Positions 2,913 through 32,855 of a stretch of 33,825 nucleotides of DNA are shown piece after piece. Under the pieces are notes generated by a model. It did not search any database. It worked only from the letters and a program-made list of their open reading frames with translations, and had not been told where the DNA came from. Made by a program: the position numbers and the translations under genes. The stretch comes from a virus (taxonomy: Duplodnaviria; Caudoviricetes): the IMG/VR virus record IMGVR_UViG_3300049017_000038, positions 1 through 33,825 of that record; one strand, given 5' to 3'. Position 1 is the first letter of the stretch. The number at the start of each line of letters is the position of its first letter.

Positions 2913-3473
2913 TTAAGGACCGCCGCAGATCGCAGCGCGGTCGTTGGTGATGATGTTCTTCAGGGTTTCGACGGCGGCGTCTCGGGCTGCAAGAAGGCTT
3001 CGACCTTCGACAACCAGGCTGAAGCCTTCGCTTGCCAAGCCGTAGAGGACGCCGTTTCGATCTGCGACACGCTGGCAGGCAGCGGGGTCGTCTTTGGCTG
3101 CGTCGCGATCACGGGCGGCTGCGGCGGCTGCGTTGCCGCGCACCCGGTCAGCCCGAGCGAGATCAGCAACACGACGAGAATCAGCATCTCGTAGCTTTTG
3201 AGAGTAGGCATCGACGATCTCCTGTTGTTGCTTCGCGTGCGTGGCTTGCATCTCCGCGCGCTTGTCGGCGTACTGACGGGCAGCGTTTTCGCGCTCGGCC
3301 CGCAACGTCGCAGCATCGCGTTCGAGCGTGGCGACTTTCGTCTGGCCTTGCGACACGCGATAGGTTTGGACGGCCAATGCAGAACCGCCGCCGATCACGA
3401 GGACTGCGATGGCGGCGGCGTAGACGTAACCGGGGATCACGTCGAAGACTTTCAACCAGGGCAGCGGGATCAT
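2913..3473 (-). CDS. Rz: i-spanin (Rz-like), 186 aa
   Basis: N-terminal TM segment (YVYAAAIAVLVIGGGSALAV) then an Ala-rich coiled coil with late Cys residues; ATGA overlap with the endolysin stop at 3470-3473; contains the embedded lipoprotein gene. Confidence 0.85.
   Translation of the reverse strand: MIPLPWLKVFDVIPGYVYAAAIAVLVIGGGSALAVQTYRVSQGQTKVATLERDAATLRAERENAARQYADKRAEMQATHAKQQQEIVDAYSQKLRDADSRRVADLARADRVRGNAAAAAARDRDAAKDDPAACQRVADRNGVLYGLASEGFSLVVEGRSLLAARDAAVETLKNIITNDRAAICGGP
2960..3211 (-). CDS. Rz1: o-spanin lipoprotein (Rz1-like), fully embedded in Rz in another frame
   Basis: AGGAG then ATG at 3211: MPTLKSYEMLILVVLLISLGLTG|C lipobox, followed by a Pro-rich mature region (QPPQPP). 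Confidence 0.85.
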   Translation of the reverse strand: MPTLKSYEMLILVVLLISLGLTGCAATQPPQPPVIATQPKTTPLPASVSQIETASSTAWQAKASAWLSKVEAFLQPETPPSKP

Positions 3474-4105
3474 GCGCAGACCCTCACGCACAGGTCGGCC
3501 AGGCGCTGGCGTTCCTTCTTGCCGATCACCCCGCCGTTGACGGCCAGGGTTTCGTCGGTCACGTCATTGGTGTCGATGGCCTCGTCCGGCACGTCCGCTT
3601 CCCACAGCACGATGAACGAGCGCAGGGCGTAGGTCGGGTCGATCAACAGGTCGGGATCGGCCAGGAGGTCGATGCCCATCAGGTCGCCGATGCGCCGGTA
3701 GTTGTTCTTGCCGGTGATCTGCCCGCCGCGGCCCCGGAACTTCCAGCCGTCGCCGGGCTCGTCGTTGCCCATGCGGCCACCGTAGACGGCCTCAGCGAAG
3801 CCGCGAGGGTTGCGCCCTAGCTCCAGGGCACGCGGCACCAGTGAACGCCAGCGGGTGCCTGGCTTGGACGCCATGCCGATCTCGCTGATGCGGCCGGCGC
3901 TGTAGTTCAGGTTCTCTTCGAGGTGTTCGAGCATCCCCGTCTCGTGGAGGAACTGCGCCAGGAACACCGGGACTTCGGCGTCGCCGGCCGAGAACGTGTC
4001 GTCGGTGATCTCGGCAGCGAAGACGGGTGCCCATCGCTCGGCTACGGAGTGTCGAACCCCGCATTCGCCTAGCACCCGAAGCCATTCCGCTGCATCGCGC
4101 GCCAT
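3470..4105 (-). CDS. Endolysin, glycoside hydrolase family 19 (chitinase-like), 211 aa
   Basis: FLAQFLHET, EENLNYS, YGGRMGN..PGDGWKFRGRG.QITGKNNY and terminal VNGG motifs; lies directly upstream of the spanins. Confidence 0.92.
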   Translation of the reverse strand: MARDAAEWLRVLGECGVRHSVAERWAPVFAAEITDDTFSAGDAEVPVFLAQFLHETGMLEHLEENLNYSAGRISEIGMASKPGTRWRSLVPRALELGRNPRGFAEAVYGGRMGNDEPGDGWKFRGRGGQITGKNNYRRIGDLMGIDLLADPDLLIDPTYALRSFIVLWEADVPDEAIDTNDVTDETLAVNGGVIGKKERQRLADLCVRVCA

Positions 4106-4217: not shown

Positions 4218-6284
4218 TTAGAGGTTAGGGAAGGGTGCGACAGGCGGGGTAAATGCCGATGTATAGCGGGCAAGACCTTTGGTGATGCGCAAGTCATCGA
4301 TGTGGCCTGACAAGTTGCTGACCGCGGGGTTCGTCCCGTTGGCACCAATGATGGGGCGAGACGCGCCTACGATGTAGTTGGCGCTATCGGCGTAGGTACT
4401 GCCTATTTGCGTGCCCGCTATAAAGGTCCGAAGGCTTCCGCCGGCCCTAGTGACTGCAACATGCGTCCACGTATTGAGGGACATGCCGTGCGCCGTGTCC
4501 ACCGCAGAAACGCTGTCCGTGAAAGTCCTAACGTTCGTGTCGCTGAGCCCCAGGAAGAGGTAAGGCCCGTTGGTGCCAGCCGGGCGAAAGTCGATCAGAC
4601 ATGAGTAAACCCCCGCTGACCAGGCCACCATGCGCACCCACATCTCAATGGTGAAATCACCCGTGCCGAAGGCGAATACGCTGGAGCCGTCCAGGGTGAG
4701 ATAGTCGCCCGTGCCGTCAAACAATGCCGAGGCTTCGCCCCATTTGCTTTGCGCAGTGCTGATCTGTGCGTTGCCGTTGGCTGTGACTGTTTTGCCGAGC
4801 GCAGAATCGGTGAAGGTCGTAGACCCGTTGGCGCCGTTGCAATGAAGAAGCAACGTGACACCGTACTCTGGAAAAGCCGCTGTCGGTGGAGTGAATGATG
4901 ACGTGTAGCGCGCCACGCCGTTGGTAATGCGCAAGTCGTCTACCCATCCATTGAACTCGCGGTCGCCGCTCGGAAAGCCGCCGAACAAACGCAACAACTG
5001 TGTTGAATTTGTCTTGCTCCAGGTCGCCCGACTAGCCTCTAGGACGCCGTTGATGAATAGCCTGAAAGTCACACCATCGTCTGAGACGGCAACGTGATAC
5101 CAAGTGCCCGCCGAAAGACTGGTGGATGACGGCAGCGAGGTAAACAACCAACTCGCGTTGTCGGTTGACCCGAAGCAGTTAAGCGTGCCGGCCGGGTCCA
5201 AGTCAATGCGAATCGGCGCGAATCCTCCCGTTCCATCACTCTGCTGGAAAAGCCACGAACTTGTCGCCTTTAAGGTTTCCGGTCGAATCCAAAACTCTAT
5301 CGTGTAGGCGCCAGCAAAGTGCCAGGCGGCTGAGTCCGCCAAGGACAAGCACGTGCTCGGAGTGTTCTGACCATCAAAATAGCAGCTTGCGGTCCCATAC
5401 TTATTTTGCGCCGTACTGATCTGCGCGTTCCCATTGGCCGTAACAGTGAGGGCGTCCGGTCCGCTGTCCGTGAACGTCGTTGACCCGTTCGCGCCGTTCC
5501 CATGCAATAACAACGACACATTGGAGAAATATGGATCGCCGAAGTACGGGTCAACGTGGTCAGGGAATTGCGCTGACGGTGGTGTGAACGTGGCCGTGTA
5601 GCGGGCAACACCTTTGGTGATGCGCAGATCGTCGATATAGCCAGAGAGATAGCCGGTAGGCGACGCCGTATGAGAGCCAATGGTCGGTCCGTAGTCAGTG
5701 TCGAACGCGCTTGCCGTCGTTGCTGTTGTCGCAAGGAGATTGCCGTCCGCGAACGTCAGCAACGCCGTCCCCGTATGGACATACGCGACATGAATCCATG
5801 TGTCTACGGTCGGGGAAAATACGCCGTTAGAGTGCATGGCGCTTGCCGACGTGCCGTCCGGGCTGACGCTGCCTTGCAACGTATACACCCCACCGCTGTT
5901 ATCTATGACCAAGCTCCATGAACGCTTGGGTGTGCCTGTGCTCCACCGCGCGACAATCGCAGCTTGGGTGCCGGGCGACGGCAATGCCGACAGGCGCACC
6001 CATCCTTCTATGGTGTAAACATTACCAAGGTCCCAATCAGCCGAGTCGGCCACCGACAAGTAGTCGCCTGAACCGTCCAGAGCTAAGCTGGCGCCGCCGA
6101 ATTTCGATTGCGCAGTAGCAATTTGCGCGTTGCCGTTCACGCTCCACGTCTTGGGACTAGGCGCGTTGTCGGCAATAGAGGTAGAGCCATTCGACCCGTT
6201 CAAATGCAAGAGCGTCACCACGTTCGCAATGAAACTGTCACCCGCGGCGCCACCGAAGCGATAAGGGTTAAGCAGGAAGCTCAT
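4218..6284 (-). CDS. Tail fibre / receptor-binding protein with three tandem LamG (ConA-like) domains, 688 aa
   Basis: Three copies of V.LLLH.NG.NGST...NGNAQI.TAQ.K.G...FDG...W.HVA...IDDLRITKG.ARYT..FTPP...FP; N-terminal MSFLLNPYRF; ATGA overlap with the upstream gene. Confidence 0.88.
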   Translation of the reverse strand: MSFLLNPYRFGGAAGDSFIANVVTLLHLNGSNGSTSIADNAPSPKTWSVNGNAQIATAQSKFGGASLALDGSGDYLSVADSADWDLGNVYTIEGWVRLSALPSPGTQAAIVARWSTGTPKRSWSLVIDNSGGVYTLQGSVSPDGTSASAMHSNGVFSPTVDTWIHVAYVHTGTALLTFADGNLLATTATTASAFDTDYGPTIGSHTASPTGYLSGYIDDLRITKGVARYTATFTPPSAQFPDHVDPYFGDPYFSNVSLLLHGNGANGSTTFTDSGPDALTVTANGNAQISTAQNKYGTASCYFDGQNTPSTCLSLADSAAWHFAGAYTIEFWIRPETLKATSSWLFQQSDGTGGFAPIRIDLDPAGTLNCFGSTDNASWLFTSLPSSTSLSAGTWYHVAVSDDGVTFRLFINGVLEASRATWSKTNSTQLLRLFGGFPSGDREFNGWVDDLRITNGVARYTSSFTPPTAAFPEYGVTLLLHCNGANGSTTFTDSALGKTVTANGNAQISTAQSKWGEASALFDGTGDYLTLDGSSVFAFGTGDFTIEMWVRMVAWSAGVYSCLIDFRPAGTNGPYLFLGLSDTNVRTFTDSVSAVDTAHGMSLNTWTHVAVTRAGGSLRTFIAGTQIGSTYADSANYIVGASRPIIGANGTNPAVSNLSGHIDDLRITKGLARYTSAFTPPVAPFPNL

Positions 6285-29644: not shown

Positions 29645-30185
29645 CGTCTTCCTCCATCTTCGCTTCTTTTTGCGCTTCCAGAACGAGCCGTCGATAGTCG
29701 CGCACCATGCCGTCCGCGTGCTGCTTGATCAGGTCACGTTGTCGGTCGGTTAACTCCACTTGGCGTTCCACCGTGTCCACCATCAGCTTCGCAGACATGC
29801 TGACCAACTTGAACAGTTCGCCGATGGTCTTCACCACCTTTTGCGTCGGCCACAGTTCGCCTTCCTTCAGCATGTATTCCTGGCGCGAGCGCAGGCCGGC
29901 CCAATACTCTTTCGTGAGCGACTTGGGTAGATCGTTGTGATTGAGCCGCATCATCGCGGCGTCCACCTGTTCCTCGGTCAGCTTGCCCATGCGCGCGGCG
30001 ACTTCAGCCACGTCGTAGATCGCAGCGTTGCCTCGCTTGCCGACCGGCTGGATGCCGTACATCTTCTCTTTGAGAATCCGGTCATCGACCTTGAATAGGA
30101 TCGACAACTGCGACATGTTCGCGCCCTTGTAGAGGATTGACGCACCCTCTTCGTCCAGCGTGGACGCTGCGTTAGCTCTTCCCAT
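29631..30185 (-). CDS. terS: Terminase small subunit (DUF1441/Nu1-like), 184 aa
   Basis: N-terminal wHTH-like segment, DLPKSLTKEYWAG..SRQ.Y....GELW.T motif; overlaps the TerL start. Confidence 0.82.
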   Translation of the reverse strand: MGRANAASTLDEEGASILYKGANMSQLSILFKVDDRILKEKMYGIQPVGKRGNAAIYDVAEVAARMGKLTEEQVDAAMMRLNHNDLPKSLTKEYWAGLRSRQEYMLKEGELWPTQKVVKTIGELFKLVSMSAKLMVDTVERQVELTDRQRDLIKQHADGMVRDYRRLVLEAQKEAKMEEDDGDL

Positions 30186-30426
30186 GGCAATACTCCAGAA
30201 TGAACTCGGCGAGCAGGCGCGCGTCCACGCGCATCAACTGCTCGACGTGTTGCTTGTGATACTTGGGAACCGGACGCAGACCAGATCGGTACTGCGCGTA
30301 GGTGGCATAGGCGCAACCGATCAGACGAGAGGCAGCGACCGGGCCGATGCCCGCGTGCTTCTCGAACGCGATCAAATTTCGATCCACCTGAGCCCCTATG
30401 TGCATTGCACTTATGGCCCTGATCAT
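30172..30426 (-). CDS. Small HTH DNA-binding protein upstream of TerS; true start may be GTG 30387
   Basis: GIGPVAASRLIGCAYATYAQYRSG.R.VP fits an XRE-like HTH; AGGGG lies before GTG 30387. Confidence 0.65.
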   Translation of the reverse strand: MIRAISAMHIGAQVDRNLIAFEKHAGIGPVAASRLIGCAYATYAQYRSGLRPVPKYHKQHVEQLMRVDARLLAEFILEYCHGKS

Positions 30427-30474: not shown

Positions 30475-30711
30475 TGTGCCGCCAGGTGTGCCAGCGTTTT
30501 GCTATCTATTTGATAGCAAAGGGATTTTCTGAGTTCACGCTGTACTCGGTCATCGGGCTGTGATTATTCTTTCCGCGACCTAAGTCCCTGATTTCACTCG
30601 CGCCACTCGTCGGACGGCCTGCACGTTGCGACATTTTTCGGCTCGCATAAGTGCCTGATTCCATTCATCGTCACTTCAGGCGATTTACCGCACTGTGCCA
30701 ATCGTGTGCCA
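30475..30711. other. Putative attP region: arm repeats, IHF-like sites, candidate core at ~30540-30560
   Basis: TGTGCC(A) direct-repeat pairs at 30475/30487 and 30694/30705; WATCARNNNNTTR matches on the minus strand at 30581-30593 and 30648-30660; immediately upstream of int. Confidence 0.65.
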
Positions 30712-30747
30712 TGCGTTACCTTGAGAACTCCACTGGAGAAGGGACAC

Positions 30748-31797
30748 ATGGGCACGATCAAGAAGCGCGGCGACAAGTACAGAGGCATGGTCCGCAAGAC
30801 GGGCTTCCGAGCACGATACAAGACATTCGCAACGTCGAAAGCAGCGAAGGAATGGGTCGCCGATGTCGAGCGCGATCTGCGCAACAGCATCCCCACCGAT
30901 CCCAACATCCAGATCGTAAAGTTGATCTCGATCTACGTCAGCGAGATCGCACCGAAGCGCCGCGGGCTTGCACCAAGTCACCTCAAGCACGACGTGCCTG
31001 CCATCCAGAAAAAGTTCGTCAACATGAAGATGCGCGACCTTCAGGGCGACGGCCTAGTCGATTGGGTGTTCCGTGAGAACTTGAGCGGGCCGACCACGGG
31101 TTGGCACATCAATCGTCTCTTCGGCGTGTTGAAGCAATGCGAACTGGCGTTGAAGGTCCGCGTGCCTTGGCAAGACATGCGGCGCTGCTATGAAAACCTG
31201 AAGGAAGGTGGCTACATCACACCAGCACGCATTCGCGAGCGTCGCATCAGCGACGTGGAGTTGGACAGGATGAAAGCCAAGTTGTCGCCGACCACGGCAA
31301 CATGGGCATGCGATCTCTTCGACTTCGCCGTGACGACGGCCATGCGCATCAGCGAGATATGCCGCATCACGTGGGAAGACTTCGACGAGGAAAGGCGCAC
31401 GGTCATCATCCGCGACCGTAAGCATCCCAGGAAGAAGATCGGCAACCACAAGGTCGTGCCGCTGCTCAGCGAAGCGTTCGAGATCGTGCTGCGCCAACGC
31501 GGCATGCGCTATCGCAAGGACAAGAAGATCAAGGACCGTATCTTCCCGCGCTTGCCGACACACGTGTCTCGGCTCTTTCACGACGCCGCGACGGATGCCG
31601 GCATCAAAGACGTGGTGCTGCACGATCTGCGGCACGAGGGGATCAGCAGGTTGTTCGAGCTAGGCTTCCAGATTCAGGAAGTCGCGCTGATCTCAGGGCA
31701 CGAGGACTGGAAGATGTTGCGTAGATACACACACTTGCGGCCGGCGACGCTGATCGAGCGGGAGCGCCAATTGCGGGCAGTACAGGTCGCGGCTTGA
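30748..31797 (+). CDS. int: Tyrosine integrase (Rci-like / dusA-associated-integrase-like), 349 aa
   Basis: GGAG RBS before MGTIKKRG; catalytic set TAMRISE (R), RDRKHP (K), HDLRHEG (HxxR), SGH, RRYTH (Y). Confidence 0.93.
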   Translation: MGTIKKRGDKYRGMVRKTGFRARYKTFATSKAAKEWVADVERDLRNSIPTDPNIQIVKLISIYVSEIAPKRRGLAPSHLKHDVPAIQKKFVNMKMRDLQGDGLVDWVFRENLSGPTTGWHINRLFGVLKQCELALKVRVPWQDMRRCYENLKEGGYITPARIRERRISDVELDRMKAKLSPTTATWACDLFDFAVTTAMRISEICRITWEDFDEERRTVIIRDRKHPRKKIGNHKVVPLLSEAFEIVLRQRGMRYRKDKKIKDRIFPRLPTHVSRLFHDAATDAGIKDVVLHDLRHEGISRLFELGFQIQEVALISGHEDWKMLRRYTHLRPATLIERERQLRAVQVAA

Positions 31798-31950: not shown

Positions 31951-32175
31951 TCAACTACCTGTGGATTGGCCCATTGAACGAAGCCCCTTCTCGCGCATGC
32001 CGCGGAAGTAGGCCGCGTGGACTTCCTTGTCGATGACCCACAGCTTGCCGACCTTGTACGTCGGCACGTCGAACGTCTCGGCGTGAATCTTGTTCTTCGC
32101 CGTTTCGTAGGTCACGCCGTACATCGCGCACACGTCGCGCACAGCAACCCACGGCACTTCCAAGTTCGTCGTCAT
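31951..32175 (-). CDS. Excisionase-like / PrtN-like small wHTH protein, 74 aa
   Basis: MTTNLEVPWVAVRDVCAMYGVTYETAKNKIHAETFDVPTYKVGKLWVID; ATGA overlap with the regulator stop; convergent with int. Corresponds to the C-terminus of track ORF 31951..32709. Confidence 0.72.
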   Translation of the reverse strand: MTTNLEVPWVAVRDVCAMYGVTYETAKNKIHAETFDVPTYKVGKLWVIDKEVHAAYFRGMREKGLRSMGQSTGS

Positions 32176-32855
32176 GCGATTTCCTCGAACGTCTTGATCT
32201 TCGGCCACTGCGCACTCCCGGTCATGAAGCGGTTCGCGTCCACCTTCGAGATGGTGAGCGAGAACAACCCTGTCTTGCGAGCCTTGTATTCCTCGATCAT
32301 CGGCAGCGGCATATCGAGGAATTGGAACTTGCCTTGCCCCATCGGCAACACGGCGATGCTGCGCACGTCGCGATATTCCTTGGGCAGCAGCACCTCGAAG
32401 GTGTCCTTGCCCACCTCGCGCGCAAGGGCCACGTGGATCGGGTACACCGACCCGCGCATCGTCGCGTAGAAGTCCACGTAGCCGCGGCGCGGATCGTTCG
32501 GGCTGGGCTCGCCGCAGTGCCCACCGGCCAGGAGGATCATGCCGAAGACGATGTGGACGGCACCGTTCGATTCCTTGGCGTGCAGCCGGCGCTCGCGCGG
32601 ATTCATCTCGGGTGAGATGCCGTAAGCGAGCCACGATTGATCGACTTCGAGCAGTTCGGCCAGAAGTGCCATCTTGTCCGGCTTGGGCATTGCAACGCCC
32701 TTGAACCACTTGCTGACCGCCTCGGGCGCCAGCTTCAGCCGATCCGCTATGAATTGCTGCCGGCCTTGGCCGGGCAGCGGGATGATCTTCGACTCGTCAC
32801 ATGCCTGCTTCAGCCTTGCTACGAAGGCCGACCTGAACTCGGGCGTTGAGCCCAT
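32172..32855 (-). CDS. XRE-family HTH regulator (repressor candidate), 227 aa
   Basis: GGAG RBS before MGSTPEF; F..RLKQAC...GRQQFIADRLKLAPEAVSKWFKG.AMP.PDKM..LAELL.VD..WLAYG. Confidence 0.85.
   Translation of the reverse strand: MGSTPEFRSAFVARLKQACDESKIIPLPGQGRQQFIADRLKLAPEAVSKWFKGVAMPKPDKMALLAELLEVDQSWLAYGISPEMNPRERRLHAKESNGAVHIVFGMILLAGGHCGEPSPNDPRRGYVDFYATMRGSVYPIHVALAREVGKDTFEVLLPKEYRDVRSIAVLPMGQGKFQFLDMPLPMIEEYKARKTGLFSLTISKVDANRFMTGSAQWPKIKTFEEIA

Follow-up and report, generated by a model that had tools for sequence, protein, structure and literature searches.

A lambda-type attP with a DAI-family integrase and a non-dusA core in a probable Chi-like phage

Introduction

In the lambda-type model of integration, the integrase acts on arm repeats and a core, IHF bends the DNA, and an intasome is formed. 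The closest described counterparts of the locus studied here are the dusA-associated integrases (DAI) and the dusA-specific islands and prophages (Farrugia et al. 2015, PMC4482086). As in the present locus, the integrases are Rci-related tyrosine recombinases, and the att core and a divergent int gene lie about 200 bp apart, with the core on the upstream side. In that survey, 213 of the 258 homologues were located at dusA and 32 at other genes, the β1 strand is the part of DusA which the element must replace, and phylogeny alone does not predict the target; phage AH2 is listed among the phage homologues. The shufflon recombinase Rci, the nearest characterised relative of the DAI family, differs by its C-terminal extension and by acting on plasmids, segments of which it inverts (PMC4482086); it is 23% identical to the integrase described below. 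The core of the present locus contains an ATG in the same register as the dusA, dusB, rluA and abgT sites of Fig. S4A of PMC4482086. It differs in its overlap, ATGA(C/T)CGA instead of ATG(A/C/T)TNGA, in the absence of a β1 strand and of an APM motif, and in a junction partner which is not dusA; nor is it one of the non-cognate sites (rluA, dusB, abgT) given in that figure.

Lysogeny modules are also found in the Casjensviridae, of which we compared Burkholderia phage AH2, Klebsiella phage YMC16/01/N133 (N133), Marinobacter phage PS6, Pseudomonas phage vB_Pae-SS2019XI (SS2019XI) and Achromobacter phage AchV4. They share with our locus the helicase-repressor-excisionase block and, in SS2019XI and N133, the position of int and attP beside terS, and the integrases of AH2, N133, PS6 and SS2019XI are 29-40% identical to ours. 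Unlike our locus, AH2, N133 and PS6 carry plain dusA attPs, reading WRFAIAPMMDWTDF, KIFAIAPMMDWTDCF and TFSVAPMMDRFH, respectively, and in N133 and PS6 existing annotation already shows the dusA-mimic attP as a small ORF. The core of SS2019XI is a different one, and the integrase of AchV4 is of the P4 type. An initial annotation of the DNA considered such a module unusual in a Chi/Nazgul-type genome; the DAI-type integrases and dusA attPs of AH2, N133 and PS6, together with the lysogeny module carried by AchV4 (PMC7996906), are precedents, and it is therefore not unusual. Compared with these phages, the clade described here forms a separate, long-stem lineage. Our literature search, which most subscription journals lay outside, returned no paper on this core or on dusA integrases in Casjensviridae lysogeny.

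Results

The genome and its lysogeny module

The window, that is, the whole stretch of DNA analysed, is a linear IMG/VR virus record of 33,825 nucleotides (55% complete, 61.6% G+C) with lambda-like terminase, portal, protease and capsid genes. Its TerL is 57-58% identical to those of Proteus, Aeromonas and Salmonella phages of about 58 kb, and 44% identical to that of N133. The gene order is helicase, repressor, putative excisionase, int, attP, small gene and terS, and the block from the helicase to terS is syntenic with SS2019XI and N133, both Casjensviridae in GenBank; on this synteny the phage is probably Chi-like and is named so here. As to the traits of Casjensviridae membership, judged on a 55% complete window and apart from any whole-proteome comparison, the lambda-like module is present and the relatives measure 61 kb. 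The genes around the attP are the following:

30172..30426, minus strand: small gene separating attP from terS, conserved, its product HTH-like when judged by eye
30748..31797, plus strand: tyrosine integrase (Int), 349 aa, DAI/Rci group (PF00589, 3.5e-23), with a purine-rich RBS upstream
31951..32175, minus strand: putative excisionase, 74 aa, from its likeness to SS2019XI and N133 loci
32172..32855, minus strand: XRE-type repressor (PF01381)

The putative excisionase matches the SS2019XI locus at 57% over 54 aa and the N133 locus at 46%, and the syntenic gene of N133 is annotated as an excisionase. The repressor matches those of SS2019XI (46%) and AH2 (42%). No Pfam or PHROG family matched the product of the small gene, which is kept in six loci of our collection (L005, L006, L007, L025, L046, L166) and in SS2019XI (31-50%). 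In three loci (L006, L165, L166) additional cargo, including a DNA methyltransferase-like gene, is found to the left of attP or close to terS; at this position the window has the small conserved gene only.

Elsewhere in the window we noticed a chitinase-like (GH19-type) endolysin with an overlapping Rz/Rz1-like pair (3470-4105 and 2913-3491, minus strand). The closest named relative of the endolysin, and the only named one, is from Variovorax (55%), a likeness which may be a weak hint of a Burkholderiales host. A 688-aa tail protein with three Laminin G-like domains (4218-6284, minus strand) is a candidate adhesion protein.

Int belongs to the DAI family

The catalytic set of tyrosine recombinases is complete in Int (R200, K225, H292, R295, H318, Y327), and its best phage matches are the integrases of SS2019XI (40%), N133 (35%), mEp460 (32%) and PS6 (31%). 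Among 324 sequences, Int falls in a clade of 70 (support 0.999), for five members of which the DNA context is available. A tree of 56 sequences, rooted on two Rci-type proteins rather than on a lambda- or Xer-type outgroup and with FastTree values as supports, places it within the DAI family, inside a 54-leaf ingroup (31 dusA-type leaves) from which Rci is excluded. The resemblance to dusA-associated integrases that had been recognised from sequence motifs is thus borne out. The Int clade (support 1.0, stem 0.61) lies in a 17-leaf group (0.997) made up mostly of phage loci, which also holds three dusA-type leaves, four ybgC-mimic leaves and five others of unknown target; deep nodes have supports of 0.5-0.9, and L025 and L032 shift between trees. 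No integrated clade member was seen among the best 80 of 553 GTDB genome matches (best 41%). Four phage loci of the same tree group (L008, L022, L062, L032) have attP-like regions upstream of int in which we could recognise no target motif.

The attP architecture is conserved at fixed offsets

The region upstream of int contains the following elements:

30475..30493, plus strand: left direct repeat pair TGTGCCG / TGTGCCA (starts 30475 and 30487, 12-bp spacing), presumed arm-type sites
30497..30521, plus strand: terminator-like element, a 10-bp inverted repeat with a T-rich tail after it
30506..30634, minus strand: 42-codon mini-ORF across the core, its frame also open from an ATG at 30664 (52 aa)
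30540..30553, no strand assigned: 14-bp crossover zone common to the partner DNA, holding the 8-bp core
30581..30593, plus strand: IHF-type site 1, TAAGTCCCTGATT, at +35 from the core
30648..30660, plus strand: IHF-type site 2, TAAGTGCCTGATT, at +102 from the core
30694..30711, plus strand: right direct repeat pair TGTGCCA (starts 30694 and 30705, 11-bp spacing), just upstream of int, presumed arm-type sites

The repeats, the two IHF-type sites and the minus-strand ORF, as well as the integrase motifs, are all where the initial annotation had placed them. Counted alone, the motifs are not significant: the IHF-type pattern YAANNNNYTGATW has two matches for 0.5 expected, a number reached in 11 of 100 shuffles, TGTGCCA occurs seven times for 5.4 expected, and terminator-like sites number three for 1.6 expected. 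Their position is significant. Indeed, both IHF-type matches of the whole 33.8 kb fall within the 270-bp gap, and the arrangement is kept in all five clade loci with an intact int upstream region (the window, L005, L006, L007 and L165), although the integrases of the four relatives, three of which are complete 61-kb genomes, are only 50-54% identical to Int. All five share the 8-bp core TCGRTCAT (30546-30553 in the window); measured from it, the two IHF-type sites stand at +35/36 and +102/103, the arm repeats occupy +148/149 and +159/160, and int starts between +199 and +209. The left repeat pairs are similar in L005 and L006, and reduced to single matches or variants in L007 and L165; the terminator-like element overlaps a near-IHF site, at which the relatives have a third IHF-type site. 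Two probable clade members without attP (L166, L167) were excluded from these counts, and five loci with 47-55% identity over the C-terminal half only (L054, L116, L196, L201, L237) were excluded from the clade.

We take the attP to be real because this architecture, a core flanked by arm repeats and IHF-type sites as in lambda-type attPs, is conserved at fixed offsets, and not on account of motif counts. No Rfam or tRNA/tmRNA match was found. Single-protein locus scans recovered no relative, clade-specific viral scans returned L005-L007 and no further loci, a profile search gave no further clade DNA context, and none of the 120 loci matching a core-plus-IHF pattern had an integrase.

A junction contig maps the crossover to 14 bp

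We examined seven (X1-X7) of 24 listed metagenome runs. X1 may be the run from which the window derives. The attP is unbroken in X1, X3 and X7; coverage in X4 and X5 misses the core, and in X6 it begins too close to the core to be informative. Run X2, an independent rhizosphere metagenome from another study than X1, contains a 222-nt contig (depth 4) which is identical to window positions 30540-30627 and has 134 foreign letters before 30540, of which 30 were available for comparison, and a 1067-nt contig of the other arm which stops at 30553. The two contig ends bracket the conserved core within a 2401-base stretch, and of 16 loose ends no other lies on a long match free of errors. Since the X2 contigs diverge before 30540 and stop at 30553, the crossover is placed in the 14-bp stretch 30540-30553. 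In our reading, the short contig spans an integration junction at which phage and partner share 14 bp, seen on one side in one low-depth contig, and we infer that the partner DNA is host chromosome. Together with the conserved offsets, this junction supports an unintegrated attP with its crossover at the core noted at the outset.

As an alternative, the X2 contig may be chimeric, or may come from a secondary site or from a variant phage whose left arm differs; the true target would even then be other than canonical dusA. It is a single contig of depth 4, its foreign letters match none of the genomes searched, and by eye the 30-mer contains a 6-of-9 IHF-type match at -33, close to the L165 site at -32. 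Nevertheless, the 14-bp identity exceeds what the overlap alone would give, the left-arm contig ends where the zone ends on its opposite side, as a fork beyond the core would produce and the merging of two left arms would not, and the 30-mer is absent from the window and from the viral contigs (no exact match in either). We consider this explanation improbable.

The partner was sought with the 30 foreign letters at up to three mismatches, without a match in 1310 genome searches (5, 401, 251, 201, 201 and 251, in overlapping samples) covering Burkholderiales, Xanthomonadales, Pseudomonadales and Alphaproteobacteria as judged by the titles of the centre genomes; plasmids and phages gave chance matches only (E 2-8). 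The 14-bp core itself occurs in 4/201, 3/201 and 2/251 genomes, the control occurring in 2, 6 and 3, and the nine flanks show no likeness to the foreign letters. With a 12-bp consensus, 10 genomes yielded 39 loci, among which no gene recurred from one genus to another. By eye, the X2 letters do not fit the starts of SucD, LpxA, NuoH, a secretin or a glutamine synthetase-like gene.

The core does not fit the dusA att profile

The initial annotation had described the core as dusA-like and proposed insertion of the phage into the start of dusA, the mini-ORF rebuilding the DusA N-terminus. Several features agree with integration at dusA: Int is of the DAI family with three dusA-type leaves in its 17-leaf group, the core lies on the same strand at about 200 bp from int (204 and 213 bp in N133 and PS6, respectively), and ATG..GA matches the register of the dusA ATG NTN GA. 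The core itself argues otherwise. From 246 integrase loci we built a dusA att profile of 121 distinct sites (106 integrated junctions and 15 attP-like sites), all of which, by selection, read APM(M/L/I)(D/E). Scored against this profile, the sites themselves range from 18.2 to 43.6 bits; the window core has -34.5, a score equalled or exceeded at 1384 of the 67,530 window positions, and the cores of the relatives -34 to -55. The overlap ATGACCGA is found in none of the 121 sites.

The encoded peptide is equally distant. SPMTEYS shares only P-M with APM(M/L)DWT. In nearly all dusA-type sites APM is preceded by a hydrophobic-S/C/A-V/I strand, the codon two before APM specifying S, C or A and the codon just before it V or I, where the window reads N-N-H; all 15 distinct attP-like sites have a hydrophobic-S-V/I strand ahead of APM(M/L)D, where the window reads KNNH-SPM. 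None of the four relatives with context carries APM; they read MGMIEYR, SGMTESL, LGMTEYMG and AVMTDPL. Neither the semiconserved 21-bp att of dusA-specific elements nor a replacement β1 strand is present. Finally, the sole junction runs into sequence other than dusA: by eye, the foreign X2 letters in the mini-ORF frame give MTEY followed by RLALNTTPTC, where DusA has WTDRHCR, so that the int-side arm joins DNA not encoding DusA, elsewhere than the initial annotation had expected. Integration at dusA is thus very improbable, and phage takeover of this tRNA-modifying gene, with which it had been coupled, is not supported; phage control over a tRNA-modification gene is not demonstrated here.

The mini-ORF

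The 42-codon ORF proposed to rebuild the 5′ end of a host gene is indeed present, but neither its DusA likeness, nor its conservation, nor a length beyond chance could be upheld. In 1000 shuffles, 19% give an ATG ORF of at least 42 codons. Its peptide has no Pfam or PHROG family and is not DusA-like, and the peptides upstream of the core are unrelated among the five loci. A consensus scan, which could miss one, found no sigma-70-type promoter (0.6 expected), and no clear Shine-Dalgarno precedes either ATG. We lean towards an open frame without a conserved product rather than a selected leader.

The target could nevertheless be the start of another minus-strand protein-coding gene, opening with or running through M-T/I-E-Y-R, for which the mini-ORF would supply a phage-made start, as DAI elements do for dusA. 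Of the six frames, that of the mini-ORF alone combines a start codon with an open int-side run in all five loci (9 to 37 open codons), it stays open through the 10 visible foreign codons, the L005 attP reads MIEYR where the X2 partner reads MTEYR, with synonymous differences at E and R, and sister lineages mimic a gene start (ybgC). On the other hand, the upstream peptides are mutually unrelated, the 30 foreign letters leave four of the six frames open, another frame (DRVQARAKYNTNLC, with DRIPA in L005) fits equally, the foreign codons of the mini-ORF frame are AT-rich compared with the 62% G+C of the phage, and neither the promoter nor the Shine-Dalgarno is apparent. We hold this possibility as a tentative one, and rather doubtful.

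Discussion

The conserved architecture, the family of Int, the failure of the core on the dusA profile and one junction contig lead us to interpret the region as the unintegrated attP of a Chi-like soil phage, next to a lysogeny module (int, likely xis, and repressor) whose DAI-family Int likely recombines 30540-30553 with a non-dusA host site. We put the probability of this reading at about 0.8.

By analogy with lambda, Int would bind the TGTGCC arm repeats and the core, IHF would bend the DNA at +35 and +102, and an intasome would form with the arm-bound Int. Strand exchange would take place across the 7-8 bp TCGGTCA(T) overlap, and excision would be driven by the putative Xis encoded at 31951-32175, under the neighbouring repressor. 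The ATG..GA register agrees with that of dusA, as it would if the overlap of an ancestral dusA-type site had been altered: the lineage may derive from dusA-type integrases, the inner letters of the overlap having changed from ATG ATG GA to ATG AYC GA in the register of the initial annotation, and this change may have moved it to a new target, as the sister lineages moved toward ybgC.

Our conclusion is that a DAI-family lineage of about 70 integrases has probably switched to a non-dusA site, with a real attP and a mapped crossover zone. A further step would be that this lineage, carried by temperate Chi-like phages, has exchanged dusA for a conserved host gene not yet described as a target, and writes it a new start through the mini-ORF; this we regard as a speculative proposal, with the odds somewhat against it. 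If true, a two-base overlap change redirects integration, and the Chi-like phages together with their ybgC-mimicking sisters would illustrate how a single integrase family has, in nature, changed target several times over. The result corrects the dusA call that integrase likeness alone would suggest, and public data sufficed to narrow the crossover to 14 bp although the phage is uncultured. Chi-like phages are often treated as lytic, and the locus adds evidence that some of them integrate. Close integrases with dusA, ybgC and other targets would also be a handy series for the study of specificity change in tyrosine integrases.

The sister Chi-like lineages L025, L041 and L046/L197 and the MAG island L121 resemble the window in their place in the 17-leaf group, in genome context and in the style of arm and IHF sites. 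They differ by a motif on the int strand, RVY(W/Y)(E/D)D(T/P), of which the window has no counterpart; in the three host genes compared, YbgC begins with a matching sequence. The motif lies on the plus strand upstream of int (L025:3842, L041:3868, L046/L197:3862, L121:3805). From this motif, the phages and the island probably form a ybgC-targeting lineage; an attB in ybgC is reported for Bradyrhizobium ICEs (PMC9174649).

The DAI-like family appears to use many targets, with gene names assigned by eye. We take L175 and L219 to lie by the starts of lolC/E-like genes, L179 by prfB, L231 by a pgl-like gene, and L226, L239 and L242 by abgT. Another 12 loci (L019, L047, L051, L063, L194 and others) presumably have a tRNA-Arg-type att by a DAI-like int, again by eye. 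The site of L029 is attP-like. Lastly, L085 of Pseudomonas citronellolis, whose Int is the closest relative of that of SS2019XI, has a dusA 5′ remnant (RRFSVAPMMDWTHF, then a stop) about 165 bp upstream of int on the same strand, the reverse of the usual DAI layout; the SS2019XI attP is only faintly alike.
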